Shown here: one piece after another, positions 3,134 through 51,706 of the stretch
How the letters are laid out: every line of letters begins with the position of its first letter
How positions within the stretch are numbered: the first letter of the stretch is position 1
Assembly (NCBI GenBank): GCA_903884375.1
Contig: CAISER010000025.1
Location: 1,637 to 65,636, forward strand
Source: Candidatus Collierbacteria bacterium
GTDB lineage: Bacteria > Patescibacteriota > Microgenomatia > UBA1400 > MFAQ01
Direction: 5' to 3'
DNA: 64,000 bases
Program-made: the position numbers and the translations under genes
The notes under the pieces: generated by a model
What the model saw: only the letters and a program-made list of their open reading frames with translations
Database searches by the model: none
Told to the model about the DNA's origin: nothing

Positions 3134-3221
3134 GAGGACATTATCCTCTATTTGATGTTTTAACTCTTTGGAGACTGACCCCGGAGTACCGAGGACGAGT
3201 TGCTCCGCAAGTCGTCCGAAA

Positions 3222-3701: not shown

Positions 3702-3703
3702 AT

Positions 3704-4138: not shown

Positions 4139-4143
4139 AAAGG

Positions 4144-4602: not shown

Positions 4603-4604
4603 AT

Positions 4605-19445: not shown

Positions 19446-19464
19446 GCCTAAATCGAATTTAGGC
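19446..19464 (-). terminator. 8-bp stem-loop (GCCTAAAT-CGA-ATTTAGGC) overlapping the tuf stop codon; possible partial terminator/attenuator between tuf and rpsJ
   Basis: perfect inverted repeat read directly; no strong U-tract on transcript so terminator function uncertain. Confidence 0.3.
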
Positions 19465-20634
19465 GATAACCTTGGTAATAACACCAGCGCCAACTGTAAG
19501 TCCACCTTCGCGGATAGCGAAGTTTTGGCCTTCCATCATAGCGATTGGCTGAATAAGTTCAACATTCATCTTGGCATTGTCACCAGGCATAATCATCTCA
19601 ACGCCTTCGGGAAGTTTAACTTCTCCAGTGACGTCGGTGGTTCTGATAAAGAATTGAGGTTTGTAACCTGTGAACATTGGAGTGTGGCGACCACCCTCAT
19701 CTTTGCCTAAGATATAAGCTTCGGCTTCAAATTTAGTGTGAGGAGTGATTGAGCCAGGCTTGGCCAAAACTTGACCTCTTTGGACATCATCTTTTTCAAC
19801 ACCTCTAAGTAATAGACCAACATTGTCTCCTGCTTGGCCTTGCTCGAGTTGTTGGTGGAACATTTCAACTCCGGTAACGACTGATTTAGTGGTATCTTTG
19901 ATACCAACAATTTCAATTTCATCTCCGATTTTGACGATTCCGGTTTCAATACGTCCAGTAACAACTGTACCGCGACCTTTGATAGAAAAAACGTCTTCAA
20001 CAGGCATAAGGAAAGGTTTGTCGAGATCACGAACTGGATCTGGGATCCATTCATCAACCGTATCCATTAGTTTCATAATTCCTGCTTGAGCTTCTTTGTC
20101 TCCTTCGAGAGCTTTGAGTGCTGACACACGAACGATTGGAGTGTCTTCCTCAAATTTATATTTTTTCAATAACTCTTTAATTTCCATTTCGACCAGCTCA
20201 AGAAGTTCTGGATCTGAAACGGCATCAACTTTATTTAAGGCAACTACCAATCGAGGAACGTTAACTTGGTGAGCCAAAAGTAAATGTTCTTTGGTTTGAG
20301 GCATTGGACCGTCTGTAGCAGCAACAACCAAAATACCTCCATCCATCTGGGCTGCACCGGTGATCATATTTTTGATGTAGTCGCGGTGACCTGGACAGTC
20401 AATATGTGCATAATGACGTTTGGATGTCTCATAAGGAACGTGAGAAATATTGATTGTAACTCCTCGTTCTCTTTCTTCGGGAGATTTATCAATTTGATCA
20501 AAAGGAAGAGCTTCTGCAAGTCCTTGAGCTGCTAATGTGGTGGTAATAGCGGCAGTAAGAGTGGTCTTGCCGTGGTCGACGTGACCGATAGTGCCGATAT
20601 TAACGTGAGGTTTGGTTCTTTGGTATGTAGCCAT
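19459..20634 (-). CDS. tuf: elongation factor Tu
   Basis: [16 protein letters not shown]1 motif; 391 aa. Confidence 0.97.
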
Positions 20635-20706: not shown

Positions 20707-22827
20707 TTATGCGGGATTTTTCAACAACTTGGAAGCAATATTGTTTGGTAGTTCTTGATAATGACTTGGTTCCATATAATATGAGGCACGACCGGCAGTA
20801 AGTGAACGAATAGCAGTAGCATAAGATGAAAGTTCTGAAAGAGGAACAGTTGCCGTAATAACACGTGCGTTGCCTCTTTGGGCAGTACCACCAATTTGAG
20901 CACGTCTGGCTGATAGATCTCCAATAATATCGCCCATATTGGCTTCCGGCGTGGTAACTTCGACTTTCATAATTGGTTCGAGAATAACCGGACCGGCTTG
21001 TTTGACAGCGTCTTGAAGAGCCATAGATCCCGCGATTTTGAAGGACATTTCCGAAGAATCGACTTCGTGGAAACTTCCATCGACAACTGCTACATCGAGA
21101 TCAACCATCGTAAAACCAGCGATAATACCGTTGTCAAGGGCTTCACGAACACCTTTTTCGATAGGATTAATAAATTCACGAGGAATCGTGCCACCAACAA
21201 TTTTATTAGTAAATGTGAAGCCTTCTCCGCGAGATTTTGGAGTAACAATTAAAATACAATGTCCATATTGTCCTCGACCACCCGATTGACGAATGTATTT
21301 TCCCTCGCCTCGAGCTTCTTTGGTAATAGTTTCACGATAAGCAACTTGAGGAGCCCCCGTGGTAGCGTCAACTTTAAATTCACGACGAAGACGATCAACT
21401 AATATTTCCAAATGTAATTCACCCATACCGGCGATGACAGTTTGGCCTGTTTCATGATTTGTTTTAATCTTGAAAGTTGGATCTTCTTCCGCCAATCGTC
21501 CAAGAGCAATATCCAATTTTTCTTGATCTGCTTTTGTTTTTGGTTCAATAGCTAGTGATATAACCGGATCCGGGAAGTCGATTGACTCAAGAACGATAGG
21601 TTTTGATTCGTCACAAAGAGTATCGCCTGTTTTAGTAGCTTTTAAACCAACAATACCAACAATTTCACCTGCTTTGGCTTCTTGAATTTCTTCTCGAGTA
21701 TTAGCATGCATGAGCATTAAACGACCAAGGCGCTCTCTTTCTGACTTACTGGCGTTGAAAACATATGAACCTGCTTGGATTTTCCCTGAGTAAAGACGTA
21801 CATAGGTAACTTTTCCAACATGAGGATCTGCTTGGATTTTGAATGCTAAACCCACAAAGGATTCATCAGGACTGGGTTTTCTTGTTTCGGCTTCTTTGGT
21901 TTTGGGGTTGATCCCTTCTGTGTCGGCAATATCGAGAGGAGAAGGGAGAAAATCGACAACAGCGTCAAGGAGAGGCTGGACACCTTTATTGCGTAGCGAA
22001 GAGCCAGGAAAAACTGGAACAATTTCGTTATTGATGGTAGCTTTGCGAAGAGCCGTTTTAAGATCTGCCATTGAAGGTTCCTCGCCATTTAAGTATTTTT
22101 CCATTAAGACTTCATCGGTTTCGACAATTGACTCGATGAGCTTACCTCTTTCACTTTCACACTCCGACTTCATGTCTTCGGGGAAACCATCGGTAACATC
22201 ATATTTGGCACCGGTTTCGTCACCTTGCCAAATAATAGTTTTTCTTTCCAAAAGAAGCGCGACCCCCTTGAAAGTATTTTCAACTCCAATAGGAAGCGCC
22301 ATGATGGCAGTTTTGGCTCCAAGTTTTTCATGGACATCTTTTATGGTAGCCATAAAATCGGCTCCCAAGACATCCATTTTGTTGATTAGAGCAATACGAG
22401 GTACTTTGTATTTATCAGCTTGACGCCAAACAGTTTCTGTTTGAGACTGAACTCCGCTTCCTGCATCAAGAACAATAATGCCACCATCAAGTACGCGGAG
22501 GGAGCGTTCCACTTCAGCTGTAAAGTCTACATGTCCTGGGGTATCAATAATATTAAAACGACAGTCCTCCTTGATGTTGGCATCAGCTAAAACAGGAGTC
22601 CAAAAAGTTGTGGTGGCAGCAGATACTATGGTGATACCACGTTCACGCTCTTGATCCATCCAATCCATTTGAGTATCTCCTTCATCAATATCACCAATTT
22701 TATAAGTTTTTCCAGTATAAAAAAGAATACGTTCGGTGGTTGTGGTTTTTCCAGCGTCAATGTGAGCAATGACACCAATATTTCTAACACGATCAAGTGG
22801 TACTTGTTTTGAGACGGGTGCAGCCAT
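20707..22827 (-). CDS. fusA: elongation factor G
   Basis: AHIDAGKTTTTERIL G1 motif, 706 aa five-domain EF-G. Confidence 0.96.
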   Translation of the reverse strand: MAAPVSKQVPLDRVRNIGVIAHIDAGKTTTTERILFYTGKTYKIGDIDEGDTQMDWMDQERERGITIVSAATTTFWTPVLADANIKEDCRFNIIDTPGHVDFTAEVERSLRVLDGGIIVLDAGSGVQSQTETVWRQADKYKVPRIALINKMDVLGADFMATIKDVHEKLGAKTAIMALPIGVENTFKGVALLLERKTIIWQGDETGAKYDVTDGFPEDMKSECESERGKLIESIVETDEVLMEKYLNGEEPSMADLKTALRKATINNEIVPVFPGSSLRNKGVQPLLDAVVDFLPSPLDIADTEGINPKTKEAETRKPSPDESFVGLAFKIQADPHVGKVTYVRLYSGKIQAGSYVFNASKSERERLGRLMLMHANTREEIQEAKAGEIVGIVGLKATKTGDTLCDESKPIVLESIDFPDPVISLAIEPKTKADQEKLDIALGRLAEEDPTFKIKTNHETGQTVIAGMGELHLEILVDRLRREFKVDATTGAPQVAYRETITKEARGEGKYIRQSGGRGQYGHCILIVTPKSRGEGFTFTNKIVGGTIPREFINPIEKGVREALDNGIIAGFTMVDLDVAVVDGSFHEVDSSEMSFKIAGSMALQDAVKQAGPVILEPIMKVEVTTPEANMGDIIGDLSARRAQIGGTAQRGNARVITATVPLSELSSYATAIRSLTAGRASYYMEPSHYQELPNNIASKLLKNPA

Positions 22828-22946
22828 ACTTTTTGTTGTTTTGTTTAATTGTATATTTTGACGAAATAAATCTGTCCGTTATTGGGACATATTTCACGAG
22901 CTTAATTTTACCATAACACTATAGCTATGGGTATAAATAATGGCGA

Positions 22947-25007
22947 TTAATGACGGAATCGGTGGCGGGAGAAGTGTTTCGAATTTTGAGATTTTTTTTC
23001 TTGCCGTTTTTGGTGTTTCCCAAAATTACGAAATAGATCCGGAAGATAATCTTTTAACCAATCTTTTTTTACTTCCAAGCAGGTACAAGCAAAAGTTTTT
23101 CCTTGAGGGTTGATAAAGATTTCATTGGCCACTAAGAATGAACCTTTGGATGGATAGCTGTTGAAATAGACAGAGTTGGGATGAATATAAATGTTAGACT
23201 TGGTTCCATCAACTTTTTTATAATAAAATTTATCAGACTTTTGAATTAGATTGCCAATAAGACCAGCCGTAATTGCTTGATGAATGGCATCTTTTCTGAT
23301 AATCGGCTTAGTGTTGGGATCAATATTGATTTGATGGTTGGCTAAGACAGTCAAAATATCCAAACGAACGTTTTTGGCTTCTTCAAGAACTTTTTCGTTG
23401 AAATAATTTTGTTTTGCCCAATCGTCACTGTAACCACTGGCGGCATATGCTTTCCAAATATTGAGCAGAACAATAAAATCTGAGTCGTTATTATTGATAT
23501 ATTGATCATGAGCTTTGTCAGCGAGGATTGCCTGGGCAGCTTCTTGAGGTCTGATAAATAAATTTTTCCCATCTAGAAGAGAAGCAATTATGACTATTTC
23601 ATTGACACAATTTATTTTTGGATCTAACGATTCAATAATCATGCGACCCAAACAAGGTTCTACCGCCAACTCAACTAACCAATCGCCTATTTCGGTAATT
23701 TGGCCTGATTCGTCCAAAGCACCAAGAGAAGTAAGAAGATTTAGAGCTTGAATGAGATTCTCGCTGCCTGGGTGATCCATAAAATCAAAGTTTCCAACAT
23801 TTTCGATGCCGACTTTTTTCATTGCGAGAACAACTTGGGACAAGTTGGAGCGTTGAATTTCAGGCGTTTGATACTGAGGGCGGTGTTTTAAACTTTCTTC
23901 AGTAAATAATCGATAACAATAGCCTGGTGCAGTGCGACCTGCTCTTCCTTTGCGTTGCTCTAAACCACTTATGGCGTGTTCAATAAGTTCTAACTTTTCA
24001 ATCCCGGATTTTGGATCAAACTTTGTTTGTTTAATTAGTCCGGAGTCGATAACGTGAATAACCCCATCGATAGTTACAGAGGTTTCGGCAATATTGGTAG
24101 CAATAATTATTTTTCTTTTGGGTGTAATAGTAAAAATATTGTCTTGCTCTTCTGGGGGTAGCTCTGCATGAAGAGGAAGAATTTCGACATCTGAAGAGCC
24201 CAACATTGCTTCAATTTTTTCAACTGTATCAGCAATTTCCTTTTTACCTGGCATAAAAATGAGAATATCTCCTTCGAGTTTTTGGTCGATGATCATTTTG
24301 ACTTTTTCGGCAGCGCCTTTGGTAAAGTCATAGTTGTAGGGAATTTCATTTTCGTAAAATATTTTTACGGGATACATTTTCCCAGGAATTTCAACCGAGT
24401 TATTGTTATCCTTCATGCCAATGTATTCAGCAAATCTATTCCGCTCAATAGTAGCCGAGGTAACAATGACACGAATAGGATCAACTCCAGCACCCAAACG
24501 ACGTTCGTTGACATCTTTAAGAAGTCCAAGGCAGAGATCAATGTTCAAACTGCGCTCATGAGCTTCGTCAACCATGACAATGGCGTAGTCAGTGAGCAAT
24601 GGGTCAAATTGAATTTTCCTTAATAAAATACCATCCGTCATAAAAGTAATGTCGGTGTTGTCCGTTGTCATGTCTTCAAAACGAATATGGAAACCTACCT
24701 GATCACCAACTTCACATTGCATCATTTCGGAAACACGACTAGTAACACTTCTTGTGGCGATTCTTCTGGGTTGAGTAACTGCGATTCCCCCCTTAAGTTT
24801 GAGCTCGTTTCGAAGTTCAAGGAGAAGAGGCGGTAAACAAGTGGTTTTGCCTGAACCGGTTTCTCCGATAAGAACAAAGTTTTGATGCTGTCTTATTTCT
24901 TGACGCAATAAATTTCTGAGATTGGCGACAGGAAGCCTATCCAAATTTTCAAGAGCATATTCCGACGAACAAATTTGTCGATTAATAGTATTTATTTCAG
25001 GTTTCAT
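22947..25007 (-). CDS. DEAH-box (DExH/RHA-type) ATP-dependent RNA helicase, HrpA/HrpB/Prp43-like
   Basis: motif I GETGSGKTT, motif II VMVDEAHER, motif V TNIAETSVTIDG, motif VI QRKGRAGR, followed by winged-helix/OB C-terminal region; 686 aa. Confidence 0.8.
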   Translation of the reverse strand: MKPEINTINRQICSSEYALENLDRLPVANLRNLLRQEIRQHQNFVLIGETGSGKTTCLPPLLLELRNELKLKGGIAVTQPRRIATRSVTSRVSEMMQCEVGDQVGFHIRFEDMTTDNTDITFMTDGILLRKIQFDPLLTDYAIVMVDEAHERSLNIDLCLGLLKDVNERRLGAGVDPIRVIVTSATIERNRFAEYIGMKDNNNSVEIPGKMYPVKIFYENEIPYNYDFTKGAAEKVKMIIDQKLEGDILIFMPGKKEIADTVEKIEAMLGSSDVEILPLHAELPPEEQDNIFTITPKRKIIIATNIAETSVTIDGVIHVIDSGLIKQTKFDPKSGIEKLELIEHAISGLEQRKGRAGRTAPGYCYRLFTEESLKHRPQYQTPEIQRSNLSQVVLAMKKVGIENVGNFDFMDHPGSENLIQALNLLTSLGALDESGQITEIGDWLVELAVEPCLGRMIIESLDPKINCVNEIVIIASLLDGKNLFIRPQEAAQAILADKAHDQYINNNDSDFIVLLNIWKAYAASGYSDDWAKQNYFNEKVLEEAKNVRLDILTVLANHQINIDPNTKPIIRKDAIHQAITAGLIGNLIQKSDKFYYKKVDGTKSNIYIHPNSVYFNSYPSKGSFLVANEIFINPQGKTFACTCLEVKKDWLKDYLPDLFRNFGKHQKRQEKKSQNSKHFSRHRFRH

Positions 25008-25117
25008 TTAGGCTGAATTAGATTAACATAAGAAGGTGAAAATATGTATAGGTGTTGTATATATGTATCTAGTGTCGTTAATTAATGATTGATGCGCTTG
25101 ACTGACGGAAAATACAA

Positions 25118-25150
25118 AATAAGCGCCCAATTAAGGGCGCTTTTTAATTT
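25118..25150. terminator. bidirectional intrinsic terminator (GCGCCC-AATTA-AGGGCGC, T-tracts on both strands) ending the small ORF upstream of the helicase gene
   Basis: aataagcgcccaattaagggcgctttttaattt read directly. Confidence 0.6.
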
Positions 25151-25334
25151 ATTCCGGTTCAGAAGGAAATTGAGCCGGGCAGTCGAATTGTCGAAAATCT
25201 GGTTTGGTTTCGGGGAGAGCCTGGTTCTTTGGTAACGATAACAAATCATCGTTACTGTTTTGGGAATTGGTGGCGGGTGCTGCTGGGGCAACGGGTTCGT
25301 TCTTTATAGATTTATTCGGTAGGCGTTTAGACAT
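25149..25334 (-). CDS. small hypothetical protein, 61 aa, Pro/Ala-rich, acidic C-terminus (MSKRLPNKSIKNEPVAPAAPATNSQNSNDDLLSLPKNQALPETKPDFRQFDCPAQFPSEPE)
   Basis: ATG preceded by consensus Shine-Dalgarno TTAAGGAGGT at optimal spacing, own terminator immediately downstream, sits between two terminators inside the str locus. Confidence 0.6.
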   Translation of the reverse strand: MSKRLPNKSIKNEPVAPAAPATNSQNSNDDLLSLPKNQALPETKPDFRQFDCPAQFPSEPE

Positions 25335-25511: not shown

Positions 25512-25545
25512 ATAACAAAACACCCCGTTTCCGAGGTGTTTCTAA
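25512..25545 (-). terminator. intrinsic terminator after rpsG (ACACCCCG-TTTC-CGAGGTGT hairpin followed by U-tract on the minus-strand transcript)
   Basis: aacaaaacaccccgtttccgaggtgtttcta read directly; rc gives hairpin then TTTTGTTATATATT. Confidence 0.5.
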
Positions 25546-25565: not shown

Positions 25566-26041
25566 CTACCATCTAAAATGAGCGAAGGCCTTGTTACTTT
25601 CAGCCATTTTGTGTGTATCTAGCTTTTTCTTGATTGCTGAGCCTGTGTTTTCATGAGCTTCCATGACTTCAGCAGCAAGTTTATCAGCCAGAGTTCTGGT
25701 TGGGTTGTTGGATCTGGCCTTGGCAGCATTCAATATCCAACGAATAGCAAGTGAATCGCGACGCTCCGGACGAATGGGAGTTGGGACCTGATAAGAGGCT
25801 CCTCCAACACGACGAGAACGAACTTCAATGTTTGGTTTGACATTTTCGATAGCTTCAGAAAGAAACTCTAGGCCGTTTTTGCCTGATTTTCGGCAATGAT
25901 ATCAATGGCGGTATAAATTTGTTTGGCAGCAACTGATTTTTTGCCTTCGAGCATACAACCATTAATGATCTTGGATACCAACTCACTTCCGTAAATTGGA
26001 TCAAGTTGAATTTTTTTAGTTGGGGTTTTTTTTGATCTCAT
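25566..26041 (-). pseudogene. rpsG: 30S ribosomal protein S7, interrupted by a +1 frameshift in an A4 (plus-strand T4, 25887-25890) homopolymer; probably a sequencing/assembly indel rather than true gene decay
   Basis: hand translation: frame A gives MRSKKTPTKKIQLDPIYGSELVSKIINGCMLEGKKSVAAKQIYTAIDIIAE then stop; frame B continues KSGKNGLEFLSEAIENVKPNIEVRSRRVGGASYQVP...KMAESNKAFAHFRW stop, together a complete S7; one extra A restores the frame. Confidence 0.7.
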
Positions 26042-26046
26042 ATTTT

Positions 26047-26466
26047 TTATTTAGCAGGAGCTGGACGTTTGGTACCATATTTACTGCGACTGGTGCGACG
26101 TTTTTCAATACCGGCAGTATCAAGCTTTCCTCTTATAATGTGATATTTAACACCAGGTAGATCACGAACACGTCCTCCCCTGATCATCACGATACTGTGT
26201 TCGGCTAAATTATGGCCTTCACCCATGATGTAAGCTGTGACTTCTTGCTTATTTGATAGTCTGACACGAGCAATTTTACGTAGAGCCGAGTTTGGTTTTT
26301 TGGGAGTCATTGTTTTGACTTGAAGACAAACTCCAGCTTTTTGAGGAGATTGAGTCTCGACCATGCGCCGTTTGACTGAGTTAAAACTCTTACGAAGAGC
26401 AGTGGTTTTCACCTTTCGTGCACTAGTAAGACGACCCTTCTTGATTAATTGATTTGTTGTAGGCAT
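26047..26466 (-). CDS. rpsL: 30S ribosomal protein S12
   Basis: [12 protein letters not shown] ... [11 protein letters not shown]12 signature. Confidence 0.96.
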
Positions 26467-26485: not shown

Positions 26486-29400
26486 TCAGATATTTTCGAT
26501 TTTTGCTCTCAGTTTGCTCGTGGGAACCAACCGACCAATAATAACGTTTTCTTTCATGCCAATAAGGTGATCTATTTTCCCTTGAACTGCGGAGTCAGTT
26601 AAAACGGAAGTTGTATCTTGGAAAGAGGCAGCCGAAAGCCAGGAATCAGTATGTAAAGCAGCTCTTATAGCACCAAGGATTAAATTGGTAGCGGTAGCCG
26701 GTTCTCCTCCTTGAGCGATAACGGCTTCGTTGGCCATTTCATATAAACCTCGACTAATAACATCTCCTGCGACCAAAGCCGTATCACCGACAGCATCAAT
26801 TCTGACGTAGTCACACATTTTGCGTAGAATAACTTCAAAATGTTTGTCATGAATACTAATACCCTGAGACTCATAAATGGATTGAATTTCTCCAATGAGA
26901 TAGTTTTGAGTTGTACGAAGGCCTTTAATCTTTAAGAGTTGTTTGATATCTACTCCTCCTGAGGCCAATTGAGTGCCAACAGAAATTAAGTCTCCGTCAG
27001 CAACTTTAAGCGACATGGCAAGAGGAATAAGATATTCTTTTCGATCTTCTTTGGCTTTGCTACTTGGAGTGATAGTAACCAAATTACCGTTTTCTGTTTC
27101 AACAACTTTTACTTTTCCAGAAACTTCAGCAATTGGAGCAACCAACTTGGGAGTTCTGACTTCCAATAATTCTGTTACGCGAGGAAGTCCTTGGGTAACG
27201 TCGACGCCTGCAGCACCTCCTGAGTGTTTGGTACGCATAGTGAGCTGAGTTCCAGGTTCACCAATGGATTGGGCGGCAATGACACCAACCGGATCGCCAA
27301 CAATGGCAAGAGAATTGGTGGCTGTGTTATGACCATAACATTTGGCACAGAGTCCAAAACGTAGCTTACAGGTTATCGGGGAACGAACTTCGACCTCTTT
27401 AACTCCAGCTGCTTCAATTGCGGAGGCAATTTCTTCTGTTATTAATTCTCCAGCATCAACCAGTACTTTTTTCGTCTCTGGGGCAACAACTTTTTTAACT
27501 ACATAACGATAAACAATACGTTTAGCAAAAATCTTTGGTCTTTCTTCTGAAGTTATTGTAATAAATTCATCAGTACCACATTCTTCGGCACGGATAATGG
27601 CATCATGGCTAACGTCGACCAAACGACGGGTTAAGTAACCTGCGTCGGCGGTACGAAGAGCTGTGTCGGTAAGACCTTTTCTTGAACCTCTAATGGAAGT
27701 AACATACTCGAAGATTGAAAGACCTTCGCGGAAGTTGCCTTTAATTGGAAGTTCAATTAAATTGCCTAATGGATCAGCAATAAGACCACGCATGGCGGAA
27801 AGTTGTTCGATTGAGTTTTTGGTAACACGACCGGAGGCAGAGTCAATAACTAGACGAATTGGATTAACTTTTGAGAACGTTGCCCAGGTTTTTTCTGCCA
27901 AATCAGAAGCTGTTTCTCGCCACATATTAATGGTTAATTTGCTTCTTTCACTGTCGGTTATCAAACCTTGTTTGTAGTTATCTTCAATTTCTTCGGCTTT
28001 TTTGTTTCCTGAAGAAATAAGTTCCGATTTTTGGGGATAAACTTCGTTATCGGAGATGGCAAATGAGAAACTACTGATAGTGGCATATTCAAAACCAATA
28101 TTCTTAACAGCGTCAATCAATTTAACAACACGTTTGGTGTCACAAGTTTTGATAGCGCGGGTGAAGAGGGCGGAAATTTCTTTACCGGTAAAACTCTTGT
28201 TCTGGAAATCCCATTCTTTGGGAAGAATGTGATTAAAGATAATACGACCGACGGTAGTGTTGGTCATAACCATCTGTTCCGGATCAAGACGAACATCAAT
28301 TGGTTGACGAACTTCTACAACTTTATTTTGATATGCGGTAATCGCTTCCGTTGGACTACCAAAAGGATATTTATAAGGAGTTAAAGTTTCATCAATTGAA
28401 GTGAGATAGTAAACACCAACGGCCATTTCTTTACGTGAAGGAATATTGACACTTTGTCCCGAAGAGGGTTTAAGAAGATTGAATTGGGGCAACATGAATT
28501 TTTTGGCCTCACGAATAGCTTTTTTGGTTAATGGTACATGAACAGCCATTTGGTCTCCATCAAAATCAGCGTTGAAACCTTCACAAACAACAGGATGTAA
28601 TCGAATAGCAGAGCCATCGACCAGTACAGGTAAAAAGGCAAGAATTGAAAGTTTGTGGAGTGTGGGAGCGCGGTTTAAGAGTATTGGATGTTTTTTGGTA
28701 ATTCTTTCCAAAATGTCGAAAACCTCAGGTTGACGTTTTTCGATGAGAGCTTTTGCAGCTTTGACGTTTGGCGCCAAGTCTTGCTTGATGATCTCGTGAA
28801 GAACAAATGGTTTGAACATTTCAAGAGCCATATCTTTGGGAAGGCCACATTGATTAAGTTTAAGTTCCGGACCAACGATGATAACGGAACGACCTGAGTA
28901 ATCAACACGTTTTCCAAGAAGGTTTTGACGGAAACGGCCCTGTTTTCCACGAAGCATGTCTGAAAGGGACTTGAGAGTTTTACCCGTTCTGGATCTTCTG
29001 GTAGAACGTGCCTGTGAAGAGTCAATTAAAGAGTCAACAGCTTCTTGAAGCATTCGTTTTTCGTTTCTTAATATAATTTCAGGAGCTCCAAGATCAATTA
29101 AATGTTTTAAGCGGTTGTTGCGGTTGATGACACGACGATATAAATCGTTTAGGTCGGAAGCAGCAAAACGACCACCCGAGAGCTGAACCATCGGACGAAG
29201 ATCAGGAGGAATAACAGGAAGAACTTCCAAGACCATCCATTCTGGTTTTACTTTTGAATCAAGAAGGCCTCTTACTACCTGAAGACGCTTGGTGGCTCTG
29301 ACACGTTTCGCTTCTGAGCTTGAGAGAGATTCTTCTTTAAGCTTGACGGCCATCTCTTCAAGATTAACTTTCTTAAGGGCGTCCAAAATTGCCTCTGAAC

Positions 29401-30193
29401 CCATACCGGCAGTCATCCAATCTACAAGGTTATATTCGGCGAGTTTGGCGTATTCCGAGTCAGACAGAAGAGAATTAACTTGAATTTTTTCAATAATGAT
29501 AGCGAGTTTACTGTAGATTTCTTCAGTGAATGCCAATTCGACGACCATTTGTTCACGGAGACTGGCAATTTTTTGTTTGGTTTCGACTTTTAAGTCTTCT
29601 GACTTAAGTTCGCGTTCGTCTTTGGCTTTGGATTTTTTCTTTACTTCAGTAAGTTCTTTTTTACCTTCGTCTTTTATTTCTTCAATTTGCTTGTCAAAAT
29701 TAGCGCGAACTTCTTCAAGTTTGGCATCTTTTTGGATTGTAATATCTTTTAGAGCTGCTTCTCTTTTTTCTTCATCAACTGACATGATGAGGAACTTACT
29801 AAAATAAATTACCGAGGTAAGTGCTTTAGGAGAAATATCCAATAGTAGAGAAAGTTTACTGGGGGCGCCTTTGAAAAACCAAACATGGGCTACTGGAGCT
29901 GCTAAATTAATGTGACCCATGCGTTCACGACGAACACGACTGAGTGTTACTTCAACACCACATTTGTCACAAATGATACCCTTGAATCTGACTCTTTTAT
30001 ATTTACCACAATAACACTCCCAGTCCTTAACTGGACCAAAAATTCTTTCACAAAAAAGACCATCTTTTTCCGGTTTTTGAGTTCGATAGTTAATGGTTTC
30101 CGGTTTGGTAACTAAACCGTGTGACCATTTTCTAACGTCATCCGGACTGGCAAGTCTGATTTGTAATCCTGAAAAATCGACTATGTTATTCAT
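26486..30193 (-). CDS. rpoC: DNA-directed RNA polymerase subunit beta' (with Lys/Glu-rich lineage-specific insertion near residues 135-260)
   Basis: zinc-binding CxxC..CxxC N-terminus, NADFDGDQM catalytic motif, 1235 aa. Confidence 0.96.
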
Positions 30194-30198
30194 GTGAT

Positions 30199-33100
30199 TT
30201 ATTGATTTTGTTCTTCATTAGTAACACCCGCTTCAGCGGCCTCTTCCGAAACTTCTTCTTTTTCAATATCGGCCTCTTCTTCATCTTCAAAAGTGGCGGC
30301 TTGAAGTTCTTCGCTCATAGCTGTTGCTTCGGAAATTACAGCGGCAACTTCCGGTTTTATAGAAACGGCTTCTTCTTCTGCAACTTCAACTGAACCGGTG
30401 GGAACAATGGCAAGGCCAAGAGAATTTAATTCTTTAACAAGAACTTTAAAAGACTCTGGAACCGATGACATTGGAATGGTTTCGCCTTTAACTATTGATT
30501 CAAAAGCTTTGGAACGGCCAACTACATCGTCGGATTTGATTGTAAGCATTTCTTGAAGTGAGTAGGCAGCTTTGTGTGCTTCGAGAGCCCAGACCTCCAT
30601 TTCTCCCAAACGCTGACCACCCATTTGAGCTTTACCTCCTAATGGTTGCTGAGTAACAAGACTATAAGGTCCTATCGAACGGGCATGAGTCTTGTCTTCG
30701 ACCATGTGATTTAACTTGATGATGTAGGAAACACCAACAGCGGTTTCTGCTTCAAATGGTTCACCAGAACGACCGTCAAATAGTTGAATTTTCCCGGAAA
30801 CTGGAAGGTTGGCTTCTTTTAAGGCGTCAGCGATTTTGGCTTCAGATACATTTTCAAATACTGGAACAGAATAACGTTTGTTTAATTTACTTCCGGCAAA
30901 ACCGAGCTGAGCTTCAAGCAATTGACCTAAGTTCATACGAGCCAGTACGGAAAGCGGAGAAATAATAATATCAACAGGAGTACCATCAGCCATGTGAGGC
31001 ATATCGGCGGTGGAAACTATTTTACTGATAACTCCTTTATTTCCATGTCGTCCGGCGACTTTATCTCCAACGGTAATTTTTCTTAGTTGAGCAACTTTTA
31101 TTTTGATTTGTTTGATGACACCGGCGTCAAGTTCATCTCCCTCATCACGGTCTAAAATACGAACGGAGATAACGACTCCTTGTTCACCATGAGGCATACG
31201 AAGTGAGGTGTCTCTCACCTCTCTTGCCTTTTCACCAAAGATAGCACGAAGTAATCTTTCTTCTGCAGTAAGTTCAGTTTCTCCTTTGGGGGCAATTTTC
31301 CCGATAAGAATATCGTTTGGGCCAACAACGGATCCAATAGCGATAATCCCTTCGTGATCAAGATTTCGAAGGTCTGTTTCGGCAACATTAGGAATGTCTC
31401 GTGTCAACTCTTCAGGTCCTAGTTTGGTATCCATAACATCACAAGTGTGTTCGTGAATGTGAACTGAGGAGAGTAAATCCTGACTTACACAACGATCAGA
31501 AACAACAATGGCATCTTCATAACCCAAACCCTCAAAAGCGGCATAGGCGATTAAAAGATTTTGTCCAAGAGCTAGTTCACCTTTTTCAGCCGCAGGACCG
31601 TTGATAATAACATCACCTTTTTTAATTTTATCGCCAACATCAACGAGAGGATGTTGGTTGTAAGAAGTATCTTGAGAAGAGTTGTGATATTTTCTGATAT
31701 TGTAGGTAACTATGTCTTTGTTTATTTCGACAAAGCCATAATCAAAAGGCGAGATACTGGATGTAGCAGTTTTGGCATCAATATCAGAAAGTTTAAGAGA
31801 AATATGATCAGCATCAACAGAAATTACTTCGCCGGCAAAAAGAGATTTAATTGACCAACCCATACTTTGAGCAACAACGTTTTCCATACCTGTTCCAACG
31901 ATAGGAGCAGATGGTTTTACCAAGGGTAATGCTTGAGTTAGGTGGTGAGTGCCCATGAGAGCACGAGTGCCTTCGTCTTGTTGGATGAAAGGAATAAGAG
32001 AAGCAGAAGTACCAACAACCTGACGAGGAACGACATCGATATATTGAATTAAGTCAGCGTCAACTTCAATATATTTTCCTCTAAAACGAGCCGGAACCCA
32101 TTTTTGAGTGATGACGTCACCTTCACGTTCAATACCGGCATGAGTGATATAAGCATCTTCTTCGTCATCAGCAGCTAGATAAGTAATCTCTTTACCGATA
32201 ACCATTTTACTTTTACCTCCCTTGGTAATTTTTTCGACTTTAAGATAGGGTGATTCCAAGAAACCATAATCATTAACTCGGGTGTAGAGAGCAAGATAAG
32301 TAACCAAACCAATGTTTGGACCTTCTGGAGATCTAACCGGGCAGATACGAGAGTACTGAGAAGCATGAATATCACGCATGGAGAAACTGGCTCTTTCTCT
32401 GGTGATACCTCCCGGTCCCATAACGGAGATACGACGAAGGTTATCAATTTCGGATAATGGATTAACTTGATCAAGAATAGAAGAAAGTCTGTTTCGTCTA
32501 AAAAATTCAGTAATGGCAGAGATAATAGGACGAGGGTTAACAAAAGCGGCGGGGGTAGGAAGTTCATCTGGTTTGGCAAGAGACATCTTTTCTTTAATTG
32601 AACGTTCAAGCCTTAATAGTCCTGCCTTAAAAGCAGTTTGATTGACTAACTCGCCCACACAACGCAATCGACGATTAGCCAAGTGATCGATATCATCAAC
32701 CTTGCCATGACCGTTTTGTAAACCAATGAGATATTTAATAGAACCAACAAAATCATCGATGGTCAAAGTAATATGCTGTTTATCTACTGGAGTCGCTAAG
32801 CCAAGTTTACGACTCATCTTGTAACGACCGACAAGTCCTAGGTTGTAACGGCGAGAATCAAAAAACATTTGATGGAGTAAAGCTTTGGCATTTTCGAGAA
32901 CAGCCGGTTCACCGGGACGAACTTTTTGATAAAACTCGAGAAGAGCTTCTTCGGTGTTTGTAGTGGTGTCTTTTTGAAGAGTGGTGGCGATATATTGATG
33001 GTCTTTGTCGACATCAACGTCGGTAAAAAGTGCCAAAATTTCTTCGTTGGTACTAAAGCCTAATGCACGAAGTAGTGTGGTCGCAGATACTTTACGATGG

Positions 33101-33642
33101 CGGTCAATCCTGACAGAAACGTGATCATTACGACTGACAAGTACTTCCAACCAAGAACCGCGCATTGGCCGTATTTCAGCTTGGTGAATAGCACGACCAG
33201 AGTGAGGGTCAACTTCACGGGTGAAGTAGGCTCCTGGAGATCGAACTAACTGGTCAACGACTACACGTTCGACACCATTAATAATAAAGGTGCCTGTGGT
33301 TGTCATCATGGGAATATCGCCAAGGAAGATTTCCTGTTGCTGACTATCTTTTGAATGAAGGTTAGTAAGTTTGACGGTTGCCCAAAGAGGAGCTTCAAAA
33401 GTAACACCTTTTTCAATGGCTTGTTTGGGGGTTATTTTGGGAAGTCCAACACGATTGGAAAGAAATTCAAATTCAAAAACCTTACCAGTAAAATCTCTAA
33501 TTGGATTTAACTCGATCAACGATTCACGTATACCATCTTCGATAAATTGTTTGTATGAGTCTAATTGAATTTGAGTCAAATTCAATTCTGGTAATACCGG
33601 GTTTATAGTTCCCCAGTTTTCACGATTGGTTTGTTTATTCAT
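30199..33642 (-). CDS. rpoB: DNA-directed RNA polymerase subunit beta (acidic about 60-aa C-terminal tail)
   Basis: conserved beta-subunit blocks throughout; start placed at ATG MNKQTNRENWG... (ORF-track start at 33705 is a GTG and adds 21 residues with no similarity to beta N-termini). Confidence 0.93.
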   Translation of the reverse strand: MNKQTNRENWGTINPVLPELNLTQIQLDSYKQFIEDGIRESLIELNPIRDFTGKVFEFEFLSNRVGLPKITPKQAIEKGVTFEAPLWATVKLTNLHSKDSQQQEIFLGDIPMMTTTGTFIINGVERVVVDQLVRSPGAYFTREVDPHSGRAIHQAEIRPMRGSWLEVLVSRNDHVSVRIDRHRKVSATTLLRALGFSTNEEILALFTDVDVDKDHQYIATTLQKDTTTNTEEALLEFYQKVRPGEPAVLENAKALLHQMFFDSRRYNLGLVGRYKMSRKLGLATPVDKQHITLTIDDFVGSIKYLIGLQNGHGKVDDIDHLANRRLRCVGELVNQTAFKAGLLRLERSIKEKMSLAKPDELPTPAAFVNPRPIISAITEFFRRNRLSSILDQVNPLSEIDNLRRISVMGPGGITRERASFSMRDIHASQYSRICPVRSPEGPNIGLVTYLALYTRVNDYGFLESPYLKVEKITKGGKSKMVIGKEITYLAADDEEDAYITHAGIEREGDVITQKWVPARFRGKYIEVDADLIQYIDVVPRQVVGTSASLIPFIQQDEGTRALMGTHHLTQALPLVKPSAPIVGTGMENVVAQSMGWSIKSLFAGEVISVDADHISLKLSDIDAKTATSSISPFDYGFVEINKDIVTYNIRKYHNSSQDTSYNQHPLVDVGDKIKKGDVIINGPAAEKGELALGQNLLIAYAAFEGLGYEDAIVVSDRCVSQDLLSSVHIHEHTCDVMDTKLGPEELTRDIPNVAETDLRNLDHEGIIAIGSVVGPNDILIGKIAPKGETELTAEERLLRAIFGEKAREVRDTSLRMPHGEQGVVISVRILDRDEGDELDAGVIKQIKIKVAQLRKITVGDKVAGRHGNKGVISKIVSTADMPHMADGTPVDIIISPLSVLARMNLGQLLEAQLGFAGSKLNKRYSVPVFENVSEAKIADALKEANLPVSGKIQLFDGRSGEPFEAETAVGVSYIIKLNHMVEDKTHARSIGPYSLVTQQPLGGKAQMGGQRLGEMEVWALEAHKAAYSLQEMLTIKSDDVVGRSKAFESIVKGETIPMSSVPESFKVLVKELNSLGLAIVPTGSVEVAEEEAVSIKPEVAAVISEATAMSEELQAATFEDEEEADIEKEEVSEEAAEAGVTNEEQNQ

Positions 33643-33778
33643 CCGTTTTTGGATTGTAAGGAAAGCTAAATAACAATGGACAACATACAAAAACCTGACC
33701 GACACAAAATCCAGCCAAGTTTATAGCAGTGGCACAAGGATATCATAATATTGAGGCCGTTGTCAACCTGGAAATTTC

Positions 33779-36256: not shown

Positions 36257-38434
36257 TTATTTCTCTTTCAGCTCAAACTTGATGTTTTTTAGAGGAATAT
36301 AGTTGGCAAAAACAGGAATTTTGGGAGATATTCTGATGGTCAGATGGTCAAAACCTTGGATTGTGGTAAAAAAAGGACGAATATCGGCGGCCGGTTTCCC
36401 TTTGATAAATCCAGCAGTTTTTATCTCATCAATTTTAGGAAAAAGACTGGTTTCCACATTTATTTTGGCTTCATAGAAACTTCCTTTATTGGTGGGAGTT
36501 TCAAGTTTCATGGAAGTGTTACCGGGAAAAATTTCCGAACCGGAAGAAATTTTTGGAGAAAGCTGATTCGAAACTAACTGAAATAATCCGTCTTCGGAAT
36601 AAACAAGTGTTTCAACAGAACCTTCTAAATCAAGGTTGAGAACGGTGGCTTCTTCACCAACATTTTTATCAAAAGTTTTTTTGGTATAGGTAAAATCAGA
36701 CAGGGCTAAGGATTTATAACCCGTTGTTTGATCCCCTGTCGATGATTGAATCTGGGACGTTATCTTTTCACCAGCGATTTGAAGTAATTTTTCTTGATCA
36801 ATTTTCGAAACTGCTTGAACAGCTCTCGACGTACCACCGGAAAAGTCTGAGTCCGCCACAGCTACAATGGTGTTTTTTGAGTAGTTATCAACTGAAAAAG
36901 CAGAATTTTTGGGTAGATTGTGATCGGCACCAATTTTAGTAGCAGTTACTTTTACGCCTGAGGCAATTCCATAAGCACCCTGAACAATACCGACATCGGC
37001 GCTTTTGGAAGCGATGGTAATAGCCTCAGTAATGAGATAAGAATATTTGCCATTATCAGATAAGATTGAAGCACCTGATTTTAGAATAATCGGAGCAGTT
37101 GATTTGTTGGCGACAGTGATAATACCATTAGCTTTATCACCAACTGTTGCTTCTCCAGTGGTTGGAATTTGTTCTTTGGCGGAACCGAAAACTGTTTTTT
37201 TGGTGGCAAGTAGAGTTGGCGAACCGGAAATAGTGCTCTCGGCTATTGAAATTGAAAATTGATCGTTAATTTTTTCAGGTTTGAAATATATAGAGATGAT
37301 TGCTTGGCCGGTAAAAAGATAAAAAACAAAGCCTAAAATCAAAAATGCGGGAATAATAAGAAGATATAACCAGGAAAATTTACTTATTTTTAAGTTTGGA
37401 AAGTGAAATTTGGGTAATGAAGGAAGGGGTAGGGTATATTTTTGTTTGGGAGTTTTTATAAGAAGCGGTTCTTCGGGTTCAATAGCATATTCCGATTCTT
37501 CAGGTTCCGTTACCGATTCTATAATTGGCTCGGGCGGAGCTTTTTCAAGTGAGTCTGGAGCGGTTGATTCTTCGTAAGAAAAACCCAATTCACTTATAGA
37601 AGATGGTGTAACTTCGGGGATATAAATATTTGTTTCTTCTCGCGGAAGACTTTCTTCGTGAGTGTCTTCGATAACTTGCCCGGTAAGGTACTGAACAGCT
37701 TCGGTTCCTCCGGTGAGAGCAATGGCTTTAATACTAAAATCAACTGCCAATACTTCAACTTTTGGCATGTGCTGAAAAGGAAGGCGTTCTTGCCACGGAT
37801 GTGAAGTTATTCGTTGTTCCTCTTCTTCCAAGACTCCACCGTTAGTGAGAATAAAACGAGTGGGAAGTTTTTCGTGGCCGATCACGGTAAGCCCTTCTTC
37901 TACATCTTGTGCGAGGTCATCTGACCTTGCAGCTTCTTCTGAAGAAGTAATTTCACCTTTTTCTATAATTGAAACAACAACTTTGGTGGTATAAATCTCT
38001 AACAGAATAGCTGTCGGAGGAATACCTTCAAGTTTTTTCATGTAATGGGCAATTGCCGAGTTTATGGGAACCATACCAATCGGGTTAAGGCCCAACTCTT
38101 TTACCAGTCTGGCAATAAGTTTCGTTTTTGAAGGATGTATTTTGCCGTCATGTATCCAAGAATCCGGCAAACCAAAAATGACTTTACGCGGTTCTGCTTT
38201 AATTATTTTGACAGCTTGTTCGAGAGAGGCATCAACACCATTAATAAGTGAGTCTTCATCGGTCCAAGACTCAAATGAACCGACACTTACAACCGAAGGA
38301 TTGCCATTGGCAATTTCCCAAAGGGCGGTTTTGATTAAAGATTCATGGATTTCGATGGCCAAAAAATATTCCGGTTCTGTGGATTTTGATTTGTTCCCAA
38401 ATAGATTTACAAGATTCATGACGACAGTCGTCAA
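36257..38434 (-). CDS. fusion protein: cytoplasmic FtsA/PilM-like actin-fold domain, acidic Pro/Glu linker, single TM helix, about 350-aa extracytoplasmic beta-rich domain
   Basis: N-terminal YFLAIEIHESLIKTALWE...VVSVGSFE resembles FtsA/PilM phosphate-1 region; TM FSWLYLLIIPAFLILGFVFYLF; translationally coupled (ATGA) to alaS; next to sortase. Confidence 0.5.
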   Translation of the reverse strand: MTTVVMNLVNLFGNKSKSTEPEYFLAIEIHESLIKTALWEIANGNPSVVSVGSFESWTDEDSLINGVDASLEQAVKIIKAEPRKVIFGLPDSWIHDGKIHPSKTKLIARLVKELGLNPIGMVPINSAIAHYMKKLEGIPPTAILLEIYTTKVVVSIIEKGEITSSEEAARSDDLAQDVEEGLTVIGHEKLPTRFILTNGGVLEEEEQRITSHPWQERLPFQHMPKVEVLAVDFSIKAIALTGGTEAVQYLTGQVIEDTHEESLPREETNIYIPEVTPSSISELGFSYEESTAPDSLEKAPPEPIIESVTEPEESEYAIEPEEPLLIKTPKQKYTLPLPSLPKFHFPNLKISKFSWLYLLIIPAFLILGFVFYLFTGQAIISIYFKPEKINDQFSISIAESTISGSPTLLATKKTVFGSAKEQIPTTGEATVGDKANGIITVANKSTAPIILKSGASILSDNGKYSYLITEAITIASKSADVGIVQGAYGIASGVKVTATKIGADHNLPKNSAFSVDNYSKNTIVAVADSDFSGGTSRAVQAVSKIDQEKLLQIAGEKITSQIQSSTGDQTTGYKSLALSDFTYTKKTFDKNVGEEATVLNLDLEGSVETLVYSEDGLFQLVSNQLSPKISSGSEIFPGNTSMKLETPTNKGSFYEAKINVETSLFPKIDEIKTAGFIKGKPAADIRPFFTTIQGFDHLTIRISPKIPVFANYIPLKNIKFELKEK

Positions 38435-40269
38435 ACAAATTGTAAATAAAGGCGGCGTGTCCCTGCGCCAAGCGACTCTTGTTTGACTATCTTTATCTTA
38501 GCAAGTTCTTCAGTGTTCGTCACGTGGGGACCTCCACAAATCTCTTTGGAAAACGGATTATTTTTGTTCCCGATGGTGTAGACACTAACAATATCAGGAT
38601 ATTTTTGTCCAAAAAAGGCCATGGCACCTTCTTTTATTGCTTTTTCTTTAGGCATTTCTTCGCGGGTGACCGCTTGTTTTTCTGCGATAGTTTTATTAAT
38701 TAATTCTTCGACCTGTAGGAGCTCTCCGTCTGTTAATTTTTCTGGGTGAGAAAAATCAAACCTTAGTCTTTGCGCTGTTAAATTTGAACCTTTTTGACCA
38801 ATATGGTTTCCAAGTATTTGACGTAGAGCCGAGTGAAGAAGATGAGTAACAGTATGATAAGCGGTGACTGTTTTTGAGTTGTCTTCAAGACCACCCTTAA
38901 ACATACCAACAGAAGCAGTCCGACTAAGTTCTTTGTGTTTTTCAAATTCGGTTTCAAATTGATTGGTATCGATTTTAATATCCATTTGAGACAAAATCTC
39001 TGTGGTAATTTCAATGGGGAAACCGTAGTTTTGGTAAAGGTCAAAGGCTGTTTTCCCATCAATGTGGGGGTTTTTTTGAAGTTCTTTAATTCCTTTATCG
39101 AGTGAGAAACCAAATTTTTTTATTTCTACCCTTATCGTTTCAAAAATAACCGGAATATCTTTTTTTATTTCAAAATATATGGGTGAGTAAAATTGACAGA
39201 CAAGTGAACTTATTGGAGCCATCTTTTCCAGTATTTCGAGATTGCCTGTAAGAAAATACATTTTTACAGCTGCGCGGCGAAGTAGTCTTCTTAAAACATA
39301 GCCTTGAGCTTTATTTGTGGGGAAAACTCCGTCTTTAATCAAAAAAGTTGCAGCAGTTAAATGGTCTGCAATAACTCGCATTGAGGGCTGATTGATAACA
39401 TCAGAGTAAGACTTACCAGATATTTTTTCGATTTCTTGAATCAGGGGGTATAGGCTGCTAATTTTAAACATATCCGGTTCGGAATTGGTAACTGCTTCGA
39501 GTCTGGTAAGCCCACCACCAAAATCAATATTTTTTCGAGGAAGCTCCACCAAAGAACCGTCTTCATTTTTAATATATTGCATAAAAACAGAATTACCAAT
39601 TTCCAAGAAACGTCCACATTCACAGTTGGGGTGACATTTTTCATTTTTAAATGGTGATTTTTCATGAAGCAGACGATTTTCACCAAAATCAAAGAAAACT
39701 TCAGAATCTGGACCGCCTGGTTCACCTGGGGGCATATTTTCCGGCACCCCTGCTCTAGACCACCAATTTTTATTTGACTGATAGGCAAAAATGCGCTCAC
39801 CTTCTTTTGCCGTAAGACCGACTTTTTTAAATAAATCTTGCCAGATGGCAATTGATTCAATATCCTTACCCACTCCAGAACCACCCCCAAATACCGTGAT
39901 AAATAATTTTTTAGGGTCAAGACCAAGACCTTCATCTTTTTTTGTTAAAAATGTAAAAAACCATTCGAGCTGTTTGTCTTTAAAATAATCGCCTAAAGAC
40001 CAGTTCCCTAACATTTCAAAAAAAGTGGTATGACGATTATCACCAATTTCATCAATGTCACCAGAACGGAAACATTTTTGAGAATCAACCAGACGGGTAC
40101 CAAGGGGATGTTTTTGACCTAATAGATAAGGCATCATGGGTTGCATCCCAGCGGAAGTAAAGAGAGTAGTGGCGTCACCTTCTGGAACTAACGAAGAAGA
40201 GGGAATAATGGAATGACCTCGTTTTTCCATAAATAAGAGATATTTCTGCCTTATTTCATTGATGGTCAT
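38431..40269 (-). CDS. alaS: alanine--tRNA ligase, short form (catalytic, tRNA-recognition and editing domains; no C-Ala domain)
   Basis: FTSAGMQPMMPYLLG, FEMLGNWSLGDYFK, editing-site HTVTHLLHSAL and CGGPHV motifs; 612 aa. Confidence 0.88.
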   Translation of the reverse strand: MTINEIRQKYLLFMEKRGHSIIPSSSLVPEGDATTLFTSAGMQPMMPYLLGQKHPLGTRLVDSQKCFRSGDIDEIGDNRHTTFFEMLGNWSLGDYFKDKQLEWFFTFLTKKDEGLGLDPKKLFITVFGGGSGVGKDIESIAIWQDLFKKVGLTAKEGERIFAYQSNKNWWSRAGVPENMPPGEPGGPDSEVFFDFGENRLLHEKSPFKNEKCHPNCECGRFLEIGNSVFMQYIKNEDGSLVELPRKNIDFGGGLTRLEAVTNSEPDMFKISSLYPLIQEIEKISGKSYSDVINQPSMRVIADHLTAATFLIKDGVFPTNKAQGYVLRRLLRRAAVKMYFLTGNLEILEKMAPISSLVCQFYSPIYFEIKKDIPVIFETIRVEIKKFGFSLDKGIKELQKNPHIDGKTAFDLYQNYGFPIEITTEILSQMDIKIDTNQFETEFEKHKELSRTASVGMFKGGLEDNSKTVTAYHTVTHLLHSALRQILGNHIGQKGSNLTAQRLRFDFSHPEKLTDGELLQVEELINKTIAEKQAVTREEMPKEKAIKEGAMAFFGQKYPDIVSVYTIGNKNNPFSKEICGGPHVTNTEELAKIKIVKQESLGAGTRRLYLQFV

Positions 40270-51677: not shown

Positions 51678-51706
51678 CCTTAAATCCTTTCTTTTTCGCG
51701 CCACCC

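Follow-up and report, generated by a model that had tools for sequence, protein, structure and literature searches.

Why does a gene for a DEAH-box RNA helicase stand between rpsG and fusA, inside the classical str operon? The question is raised by a 64,000-nucleotide (nt) stretch of DNA from Candidatus Collierbacteria bacterium (GCA_903884375.1, CAISER010000025.1, positions 1,637-65,636; the window in the following), in which the gene lies at 22947-25007 and encodes a protein of 686 amino acids (aa). The original prediction for this locus described the protein as a eukaryote-type, minimal HrpB-like helicase that is wired into the translation-factor locus. Our analysis arrives at another account, which we consider probable, namely that a core-only helicase of the HrpA family occupies a gap which is specific to one lineage and separates two transcription units. 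We confirmed that the gene stands between rpsG and fusA, both of which were identified and are located on the same strand, and all eight DEAH-box signature motifs were located.

The Pfam matches span residues 37-655 and comprise DEAD (RecA1, 37-190), Helicase_C (RecA2, 236-359), the winged helix HA2_N (421-441), the ratchet HA2_C (450-514) and OB_NTP_bind (575-655). The helicase motifs I (GETGSGKT, 48-55), Ia (TQPRR), Ib (TDGILL), II (DEAH, 147-150), III (SAT), IV (LIFMPG), V (TNIAETSVT) and VI (QRKGRAGR, 351-358) are unchanged across a 17-sequence family alignment. An AlphaFold model with a predicted local distance difference test score (pLDDT) of 84.9 and a predicted template modelling score (pTM) of 0.81 shows a five-domain core and a RecA2 beta-hairpin at 324-343, which is formed by the strands 324-331 and 336-343 between motifs V and VI. 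Residues 1-13 are predicted to be disordered, and likewise the C-terminal residues 663-686 (pLDDT <50). With eight motifs in two RecA-like domains, a winged-helix/ratchet/OB module and the RecA2 beta-hairpin, the protein has the features of the DEAH/RHA helicases of superfamily 2. A 3'-to-5' translocation on RNA and an RNA-stimulated NTPase activity are predicted from the conserved catalytic motifs and from the homology to HrpA and Prp43 (PMC8325345, PMC11419001). The chain ends 31 residues past the OB fold. All complete members of this short family carry such tails (14-38 residues, counted from residue 655) with 8-15 K/R/H and few D/E, irrespective of the genomic context, and the basic tail occupies the place of the ribosome-binding C-terminal region of HrpA.

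With regards to family identity, the best NCBIfam model was HrpA (TIGR01967), which covered residues 22-660, the OB fold included, with 472.6 bits and remained under its cut-off of 722.75; a second HrpA model (NF008348) gave 427.8 bits at a cut-off of 1400. The HrpB models TIGR01970 and NF008662 scored 361 and 325 bits over residues 25-483 only. These matches, together with 210 bits for HrpB structures in a phmmer search of the PDB (residues 25-461), are what a minimal HrpB or an HrpB orthologue would have in its favor. However, the 361 bits fall short of both the cut-off of 546.15 and the scores of the HrpA models, the alignment ends at approximately residue 483 and leaves the ratchet/OB part and the C-terminal extension of HrpB unmatched, and HrpB forms a long-branch outgroup in our tree. 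HrpB orthology was rejected on the basis of score and alignment end and appears extremely unlikely. From the description as minimal and HrpB-like, only the minimal size is left. The proposed Prp43/HrpB-like C-terminal region stands with regard to its first half, since a Prp43-like winged-helix/ratchet/OB module is present, but not with regard to HrpB, which aligns to the shorter range stated above and under the HrpA score.

Among solved structures, the eukaryotic DEAH helicases score best. The phmmer search of the PDB gave 417-420 bits for DHX8/DHX15 (best E 1e-124, well outside what chance would give), 372 for Prp43 and 359 for E. coli HrpA; structure-based identities were 35-36% for DHX8/DHX15 versus 33% for E. 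coli HrpA. Foldseek returned template modelling (TM) scores of 0.81-0.85 for DHX15, DHX8, Prp22, Prp2 and Prp43 over approximately 650 columns and a TMq of 0.81 for E. coli HrpA (6zww), and in the phmmer search the OB region aligned to the DHX proteins and not to E. coli HrpA. Taken alone, these values would suit a Prp43/DHX15-like or Prp22/DHX8-like helicase that was acquired from eukaryotes or is kin to their ancestor. We read the modest gap in score as a consequence of the divergence of E. coli HrpA and not as a sign of ancestry, and the phylogeny points the same way. A neighbor-joining (NJ) tree was calculated for 161 helicase cores with simple corrected distances and HrpB as outgroup on a long branch, and bootstraps were obtained on 65 taxa. 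The short Microgenomates clade (666-694 aa), which includes the window protein, was recovered in 100 of 100 replicates, and its grouping with sisters from the Candidate Phyla Radiation (CPR) in 94 of 100. The eukaryote-like clade was likewise recovered in 100 of 100 replicates, without the window family, and not one of 100 placed this family as sister to the eukaryotes. Thus, a eukaryote-type origin was rejected by the tree, and with the TIGR01967 match extending through the OB fold and the nearest kin being bacterial, we assign it next to no probability.

The database matches agree with this placement. Homologues with 50-100% identity are proteins of approximately 680 aa from metagenome-assembled genomes (MAGs) of Microgenomates, Collierbacteria and Woesebacteria, which annotation pipelines have named 'HrpA-like RNA helicase' or 'ATP-dependent RNA helicase'. 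When 1.84 billion representatives were searched exhaustively, the closest sequences beyond the family were bacterial forms of 1000-1500 aa with an N-terminal core (44-49% identity), one of which carries a partial DUF3418 match. Eukaryote-like proteins appeared from approximately 430 bits downward; in these, the core begins at residue 226-515. Our scan of one genome per GTDB species placed Patescibacteria closest, followed by Spirochaetota (34-38% identity) and a few other bacterial MAGs. The window protein is a bacterial, CPR-lineage, core-only offshoot of the HrpA branch and neither eukaryote-type nor HrpB-like.

The term core-only refers to what E. coli HrpA has in addition. This enzyme is a 3'-to-5' RNA helicase that splits collided ribosomes via its C-terminal region (PMC11419001, PMC8325345), of which residues 851-1300 (DUF3418) recognize the interface of the collided ribosomes (PMC11419001). 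None of the 272 collected relatives matched this region in a phmmer search with HrpA residues 801-1300 as query, the window helicase had no Pfam match to PF11898 (DUF3418), and no separate open reading frame (ORF) resembling the region was found in the window. The N-terminal accessory domain of HrpA is missing as well, as the alignment begins at HrpA residue 74 and residue 22 of the window protein. In the sister group, the loci L006, L008 and L010 encode a helicase of 712-732 aa and, just downstream, a separate ORF of 300-717 aa (L006:10204-12354, L008:3019-3927, L010:10165-12036). By tblastn (35% identity) and a weak DUF3418 match, this ORF is a homologue of the C-terminal portion of the fused long forms. 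The 712-aa helicase and 717-aa ORF of L006/P0074 and the fused proteins of 1321-1330 aa in L007 and L012 illustrate that the split and the fused forms are versions of one protein.

How widespread the gene order is was answered by the genome scan, which returned 80 loci, and by contig look-ups, which added six more places. Only the three closest of the 80 loci (L001-L003) showed the order rpsG-helicase-fusA, with helicase identities of 67-72% and identities of 89-96% for RpoC, EF-G and EF-Tu. The look-ups found it also in L081 (helicase 75%), the P0018 contig (68%) and L082 (64%), and it is present in L089 and L091, whose helicases are just 51% identical to that of the window. In L090, the order is helicase-NUDIX-ORF-fusA. 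In total, the arrangement was found in nine related loci, all from a Collierbacteria-related Microgenomates clade. The helicase is located away from rpsG and fusA in L004-L006, L083 (next to ABC transporters), L084 and L085; in L084, it begins 3 nt after rplS, and L004 also has the L19 gene upstream. Among the examined loci, closer helicases accompany more similar EF-G and RpoC. The arrangement is typical of this one clade and not of the phylum. The refuting case named in the original prediction, a universal arrangement already annotated as hrpB, applies in part: the order is lineage-typical and the protein already annotated, though as HrpA-like and not as hrpB, and not phylum-wide. Our literature search turned up no paper that treats DEAH/HrpA helicases of CPR/Patescibacteria or the presence of a helicase within the str operon.

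Other relatives differ at the same junction. In L088 (Collierbacteria GWB1_45_35-type, EF-G 85%), fusA is preceded not by rpsG but by a toxin-antitoxin pair (a Gp49/HigB-like gene and a helix-turn-helix gene). L092 (EF-G 77%) contains a 420-aa DEAD-box helicase (CshA/DbpA/RhlE-like) and three ORFs without NCBIfam match between rpsG and fusA (1306-4855), and in L093 (EF-G 72%), rpsG and fusA meet in the canonical junction, 45 nt apart. A general recurrence of RNA helicases at this junction was considered and rejected, since the relatives of the L092 DEAD-box protein, found in 65 metagenome loci, were in no case flanked by rpsG or fusA; L092 is for this reason regarded as an isolated event.

The transcription signals do not give the picture of a single str-operon unit (Table 1). 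Two strong terminator-like hairpins stand between rpsG and the helicase (25542-25517 and 25142-25121), in agreement with the terminators predicted earlier on the rpsG side, and promoter-like motifs precede both the helicase and fusA. The hairpin directly after rpsG would end the rpoBC-rpsLG transcription unit, and the signals together suggest three units, rpoBC-rpsLG, the helicase and fusA-tuf-S10. A G+C-rich hairpin that is followed by a run of T stands ahead of the helicase in the window, L001, L002, L081, L082, L089 and L091; none was evident in L003 or L090. The helicase motif, an extended -10-like element with the consensus TGTGTTAATCTA, ends 11 nt before the helicase ATG in the window, which implies a very short leader that would lack a Shine-Dalgarno sequence. 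The motif is kept in the window, L001, L002, L081, L082, L089 and L090 and also in the non-syntenic L083, and L003 has a diverged form only. The claim that the helicase is wired into the translation-factor locus does not fit with a terminator ahead of the gene in most syntenic loci, a motif of its own that travels with it, and an extended -10 that belongs to fusA.

A promoter of fusA, which the original prediction proposed to look for in 22828-22946, is suggested by a conserved extended -10 at 22905-22913. The element TGnTAnAATTA occurs upstream of fusA in 11 of 11 clade loci, whatever lies upstream, and is absent from the canonical L093, which has none of the signals described here. In L088 (4900-5100), the GTG start of fusA follows 7 nt after the conserved extended -10 TGTGGTAAAAT, implying a probably leaderless EF-G mRNA. 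In the other loci, a leader hairpin was found at the same place in nine distinct sequences from ten loci, with equivalents of the window hairpin in L001-L003, L081, L082 and L089-L092. The stems differ (GTCC/GGAC, GCCC/GGGC, GTCG/CGGC) with the pairing kept, and the folding energies were -7.9 to -14.4 kcal/mol versus shuffle means of -3.9 to -8.9; the hairpin is followed by TTTATTTCGTC, a U-rich tract. It was judged from individual folds, as the MAFFT alignment set the hairpins out of register for a covariation count, and no Rfam family matched it. Because it is also present in L090 and L092 without a helicase directly upstream, the hairpin belongs to fusA. It could act as a 5' stabilizer or attenuator for the fusA-tuf-S10 unit and may in addition be a weak terminator for the helicase.

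The rpsG-helicase gap holds different genes from locus to locus. The window has a unique 61-aa ORF, for which Pfam, NCBIfam and PADLOC gave zero matches and a tblastn search against the relatives' loci found nothing; it looks like a lineage-specific cargo of the gap. L002, L003 and L082 have no ORF in this place, and a Cys-rich ORF of 73-86 aa (CPF...C..C..WN...CG) is found in L001 (7584-7844), L081 (5616-5876) and L089 (2578-2799) and not in the window. The P0018 contig carries a DUF559/MTES_1575 endonuclease protein and two small ORFs, and the gene upstream of the helicase in L090 is read as a putative RelE/ParE-like toxin. A conserved small-protein partner of the helicase was rejected, as the 61-aa ORF is unrelated to the Cys-rich ORFs and three loci have none.

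A more regular neighbor was found elsewhere. Neighbor clustering of 30 helicase loci (27 from the genome scan and L083-L085) revealed a protein X of approximately 190-223 aa. Its gene precedes the helicase gene in the same orientation in 12 of the 30 loci, and the gap measures -10 to +7 nt in ten of these. In other CPR lineages, the two genes are translationally coupled. Protein X is present in the sister group of the window family and absent from the window and the syntenic loci. No sequence match was obtained in Pfam, NCBIfam or the PDB, the 16 relatives from a word-indexed database search are all 'hypothetical protein' of Patescibacteria, and one member had a faint CARF match in PADLOC (E 6.5e-4); the predicted fold is SAVED-like. 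This partner may be a more original lead than the window helicase itself.

Toxin or toxin-antitoxin genes at the junction (L088, L090), the endonuclease gene, the variable small ORFs, a slightly lower GC content at the helicase locus (37-39% vs 40-42% in the flanks) and the coupling to a SAVED-like protein in other CPR lineages could be read as signs that the helicase belongs to a mobile or defence island which landed at a hot spot of insertion. However, PADLOC had no match for the helicase or the 61-aa ORF, the search for phage homologues of the helicase returned annotated hrpA/hrpB genes only, and no integrase or repeats were seen. In the examined loci, helicase relatedness tracks the similarity of EF-G and RpoC, and the SAVED-like partner is missing from all syntenic loci. 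A defence or mobile element was rejected on the PADLOC and phage results, and the helicase being part of such an island is very unlikely.

A role as a dedicated translation factor deserves more weight. Here, a helicase without the HrpA C-terminal region would serve ribosome rescue or biogenesis, read-through would couple it to EF-G and EF-Tu, and the arrangement would be under selection. We hold this to be possible, if on the doubtful side. In its favor, the arrangement persists across helicases with 51% identity, and the helicase-fusA spacer is short (approximately 100-140 nt across the loci) and has a weak hairpin only. The placement of the L084 helicase behind rplS and the L19 gene upstream in L004 fit as well, E. 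coli HrpA acts on ribosomes (PMC11419001), and the basic tail could bind rRNA. On the other hand, most syntenic loci have a terminator ahead of the helicase, the gene comes with a promoter-like motif of its own, and the promoter-like element of fusA is independent of the helicase. In addition, a putative RelE/ParE-like toxin gene, NUDIX, a DUF559 endonuclease and unrelated small ORFs are found in this slot, several sister lineages place the helicase by unrelated genes such as ABC transporters, and the recurrent neighbor in other CPR is the SAVED-like protein and not a translation gene. A more elaborate form, which we consider unlikely, assumes a translation-dedicated core-only enzyme with a basic rRNA-binding tail in place of the collision-sensing region and the SAVED-like partner. 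The enzyme would be expressed together with EF-G and EF-Tu as a result of read-through and would rescue or mature ribosomes by pulling RNA, without a ribosome-recognition domain, in ultra-small bacteria short of quality-control factors.

The account of a core-only helicase in a gap between transcription units can be put as follows. An ancestral helicase of the HrpA branch would have been reduced to RecA1, RecA2, winged helix, ratchet and OB fold, with a short disordered K/R/H tail instead of the lost parts. By homology, the protein would be an NTP-driven 3'-to-5' translocase on single-stranded RNA, with the RNA threading the tunnel between the RecA domains and the winged-helix/ratchet/OB module, and the basic tail would probably be a non-specific RNA tether. 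In this clade, fusA would possess an extended -10 promoter and a leader hairpin of its own, and rpoBC-rpsLG would end in a terminator, which together would leave a gap between two transcription units. The helicase would occupy this gap with its own promoter-like motif, beside variable cargo. Read-through from the helicase into fusA would be possible, because the spacer offers only the weak leader hairpin. The most plausible substrates would be ribosome-associated RNAs (mRNA on stalled ribosomes or rRNA in assembly), and general RNA remodelling would be nearly as likely. Of these elements, the identity and architecture of the protein, its placement in the tree, the spread of the gene order and the conserved motifs are results, while promoter and terminator function, enzymatic mechanism and cellular role are predictions. 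A ribosome-linked role is suggested by the function of HrpA, the long retention beside fusA and the rplS-adjacent member. It loses weight because the C-terminal region is missing, the transcription signals are separate, the cargo varies and the helicase has unrelated neighbors in sister lineages.

Several points weigh against this account. The promoters and terminators are predictions from consensus and conservation, and a generic promoter scan of the region gave 14 sites versus 14.8 expected from shuffles, hence no enrichment. The deep backbone of the NJ tree is poorly supported, and while the seven core syntenic helicases group together in 84% of bootstraps, a clade of all nine was recovered in just 1%, so that the trees give no count of how often the arrangement was gained or lost. 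Because the collision-sensing C-terminal region of HrpA is absent, the link of HrpA to ribosomes does not automatically carry over to this protein. Finally, the retention of the arrangement down to 51% helicase identity and the member located 3 nt after rplS indicate that the position is perhaps not neutral.

For better orientation, the features of the locus are collected in Table 1.

Table 1. Features of the rpoB-tuf region in the window, listed in the direction of transcription.
Feature	Position	Strand	Remark
rpoB	30199-33705	-	Upstream gene
rpoC	26486-30193	-	Upstream gene
rpsL	26047-26466	-	Upstream gene
rpsG (ribosomal protein S7)	25566-26041	-	Direct upstream conserved neighbor
Predicted intrinsic terminator, 11-bp stem	25517-25542	-	Right after rpsG; terminator scan
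61-aa ORF, P/A/N/Q-rich, AAGGAGG ribosome-binding site	25149-25334	-	rpsG-helicase gap; missed by the original prediction
Predicted intrinsic terminator, 8-bp stem (6 G-C pairs), T-run on both strands	25121-25142	-	Terminator scan
Promoter-like motif of the helicase, TATGTTAATCTA	25019-25030	-	Conservation among loci
Helicase coding sequence, 686 aa, ATG start	22947-25007	-	ORF list; Pfam
K/R/H-rich C-terminal tail of the helicase, approx. residues 660-686 (...GKHQKRQEKKSQNSKHFSRHRFRH)	22950-23030	-	pLDDT; family tails
Helicase-fusA spacer, 119 nt	22828-22946	-	
Promoter-like extended -10 of fusA (TGGTAAAAT)	22905-22913	-	Conserved across clade loci
Leader hairpin of fusA, TGTCC-N7-GGACA, then ATTTATTTCGTC	22873-22889	-	Hairpin scan; individual folds
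fusA (EF-G, 706 aa)	20707-22827	-	Pfam; ORF list
tuf	19459-20634	-	After fusA; rpsJ and the S10 operon come next

The rpsG gene of the window is broken by a 1-nt deletion near 25889 (GCCGAA-AATCAGG), which the original prediction likewise did not notice, a single alignment gap at column 158 versus L001, L002 and L081, which leads to a premature TAG after 57 codons and splits the gene into the ORFs 25868-26041 and 25566-25733. It is undivided and in one frame in L001 and L002. As rpsG is essential, an error of assembly or sequencing is most likely, and a genuine frameshift may also be the cause. Elsewhere in the window, the minus-strand region 36257-40269 encodes a 612-aa alanyl-tRNA synthetase with the catalytic core and the second additional domain, from which the usual C-terminal part is apparently missing; its gene overlaps by 4 nt the start of a downstream 725-aa ORF without Pfam match. 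RNase J (43796-45454) and PNPase (49500-51704) share the strand of the translation gene cluster. Searches of the whole 64 kb with Rfam at gathering thresholds and for tRNAs gave no match and no tRNA gene.

The gene order is lineage-typical, and the analysis corrects the over-reading as eukaryote-type and reveals no new system. What it adds is a compact, uncharacterized Patescibacteria branch of the HrpA family without the domain that directs E. coli HrpA to collided ribosomes. If these proteins still act on ribosomes, they would show the minimum that a DEAH helicase needs for this purpose and would be a small target for biochemistry or cryo-electron microscopy. The locus is also a clean example of a deeply conserved str operon that appears to be split by a new fusA promoter, with the resulting gap collecting cargo.

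Compared with E. coli HrpA (6zww, 9gft), the window protein has the same RecA1-RecA2-winged helix-ratchet-OB core (359 bits over residues 22-619, 33% identity, TMq 0.81) and presumably the same mechanism of RNA translocation, but it measures 686 aa versus 1300 aa, lacks the N-terminal domain and the DUF3418 region 851-1300, and ends in a basic disordered tail. The split and fused HrpA-like forms of Patescibacteria are its closest relatives outside the short family (44-56% identity) and its sisters with 94% support; however, those retain a DUF3418-like region and the SAVED-like partner, and the window and the syntenic loci have neither. With Prp43/DHX15, Prp22/DHX8 and Prp2/DHX16, the protein shares the compact core, and these are the best matches among solved structures over the full core including the OB fold, whereas they form a separate clade, and the window protein has no N-terminal extension and a bacterial host. 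No G-patch cofactor turned up at the helicase locus, where no search aimed at G-patch was made.

Borrelia burgdorferi HrpA, a protein of 823 aa, is an RNA-stimulated ATPase and helicase and a global post-transcriptional regulator (PMC3868530, PMC3144200). It resembles the window protein in that it is bacterial, far shorter than E. coli HrpA and encoded in a small genome, and in Borrelia it takes part broadly in RNA processing; it differs in its phylum and greater length. To our knowledge, Borrelia burgdorferi hrpA does not sit in the str locus. With regards to the locus itself, small multigene insertions between translation operons, confined between a stop codon and the next promoter, are a known pattern (PMC6735719). 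The present case agrees with the insertions between the rpoBC, str, S10, spc and alpha operons described by Brandis et al. (2019, PMC6735719) in that the gene is placed behind the stop codon or terminator of one unit and ahead of the promoter of the following one. In contrast to those insertions, the break falls here within the classical str operon itself, where it separates rpsG from fusA, and it would have been made possible by the promoter that fusA has to itself in this clade.

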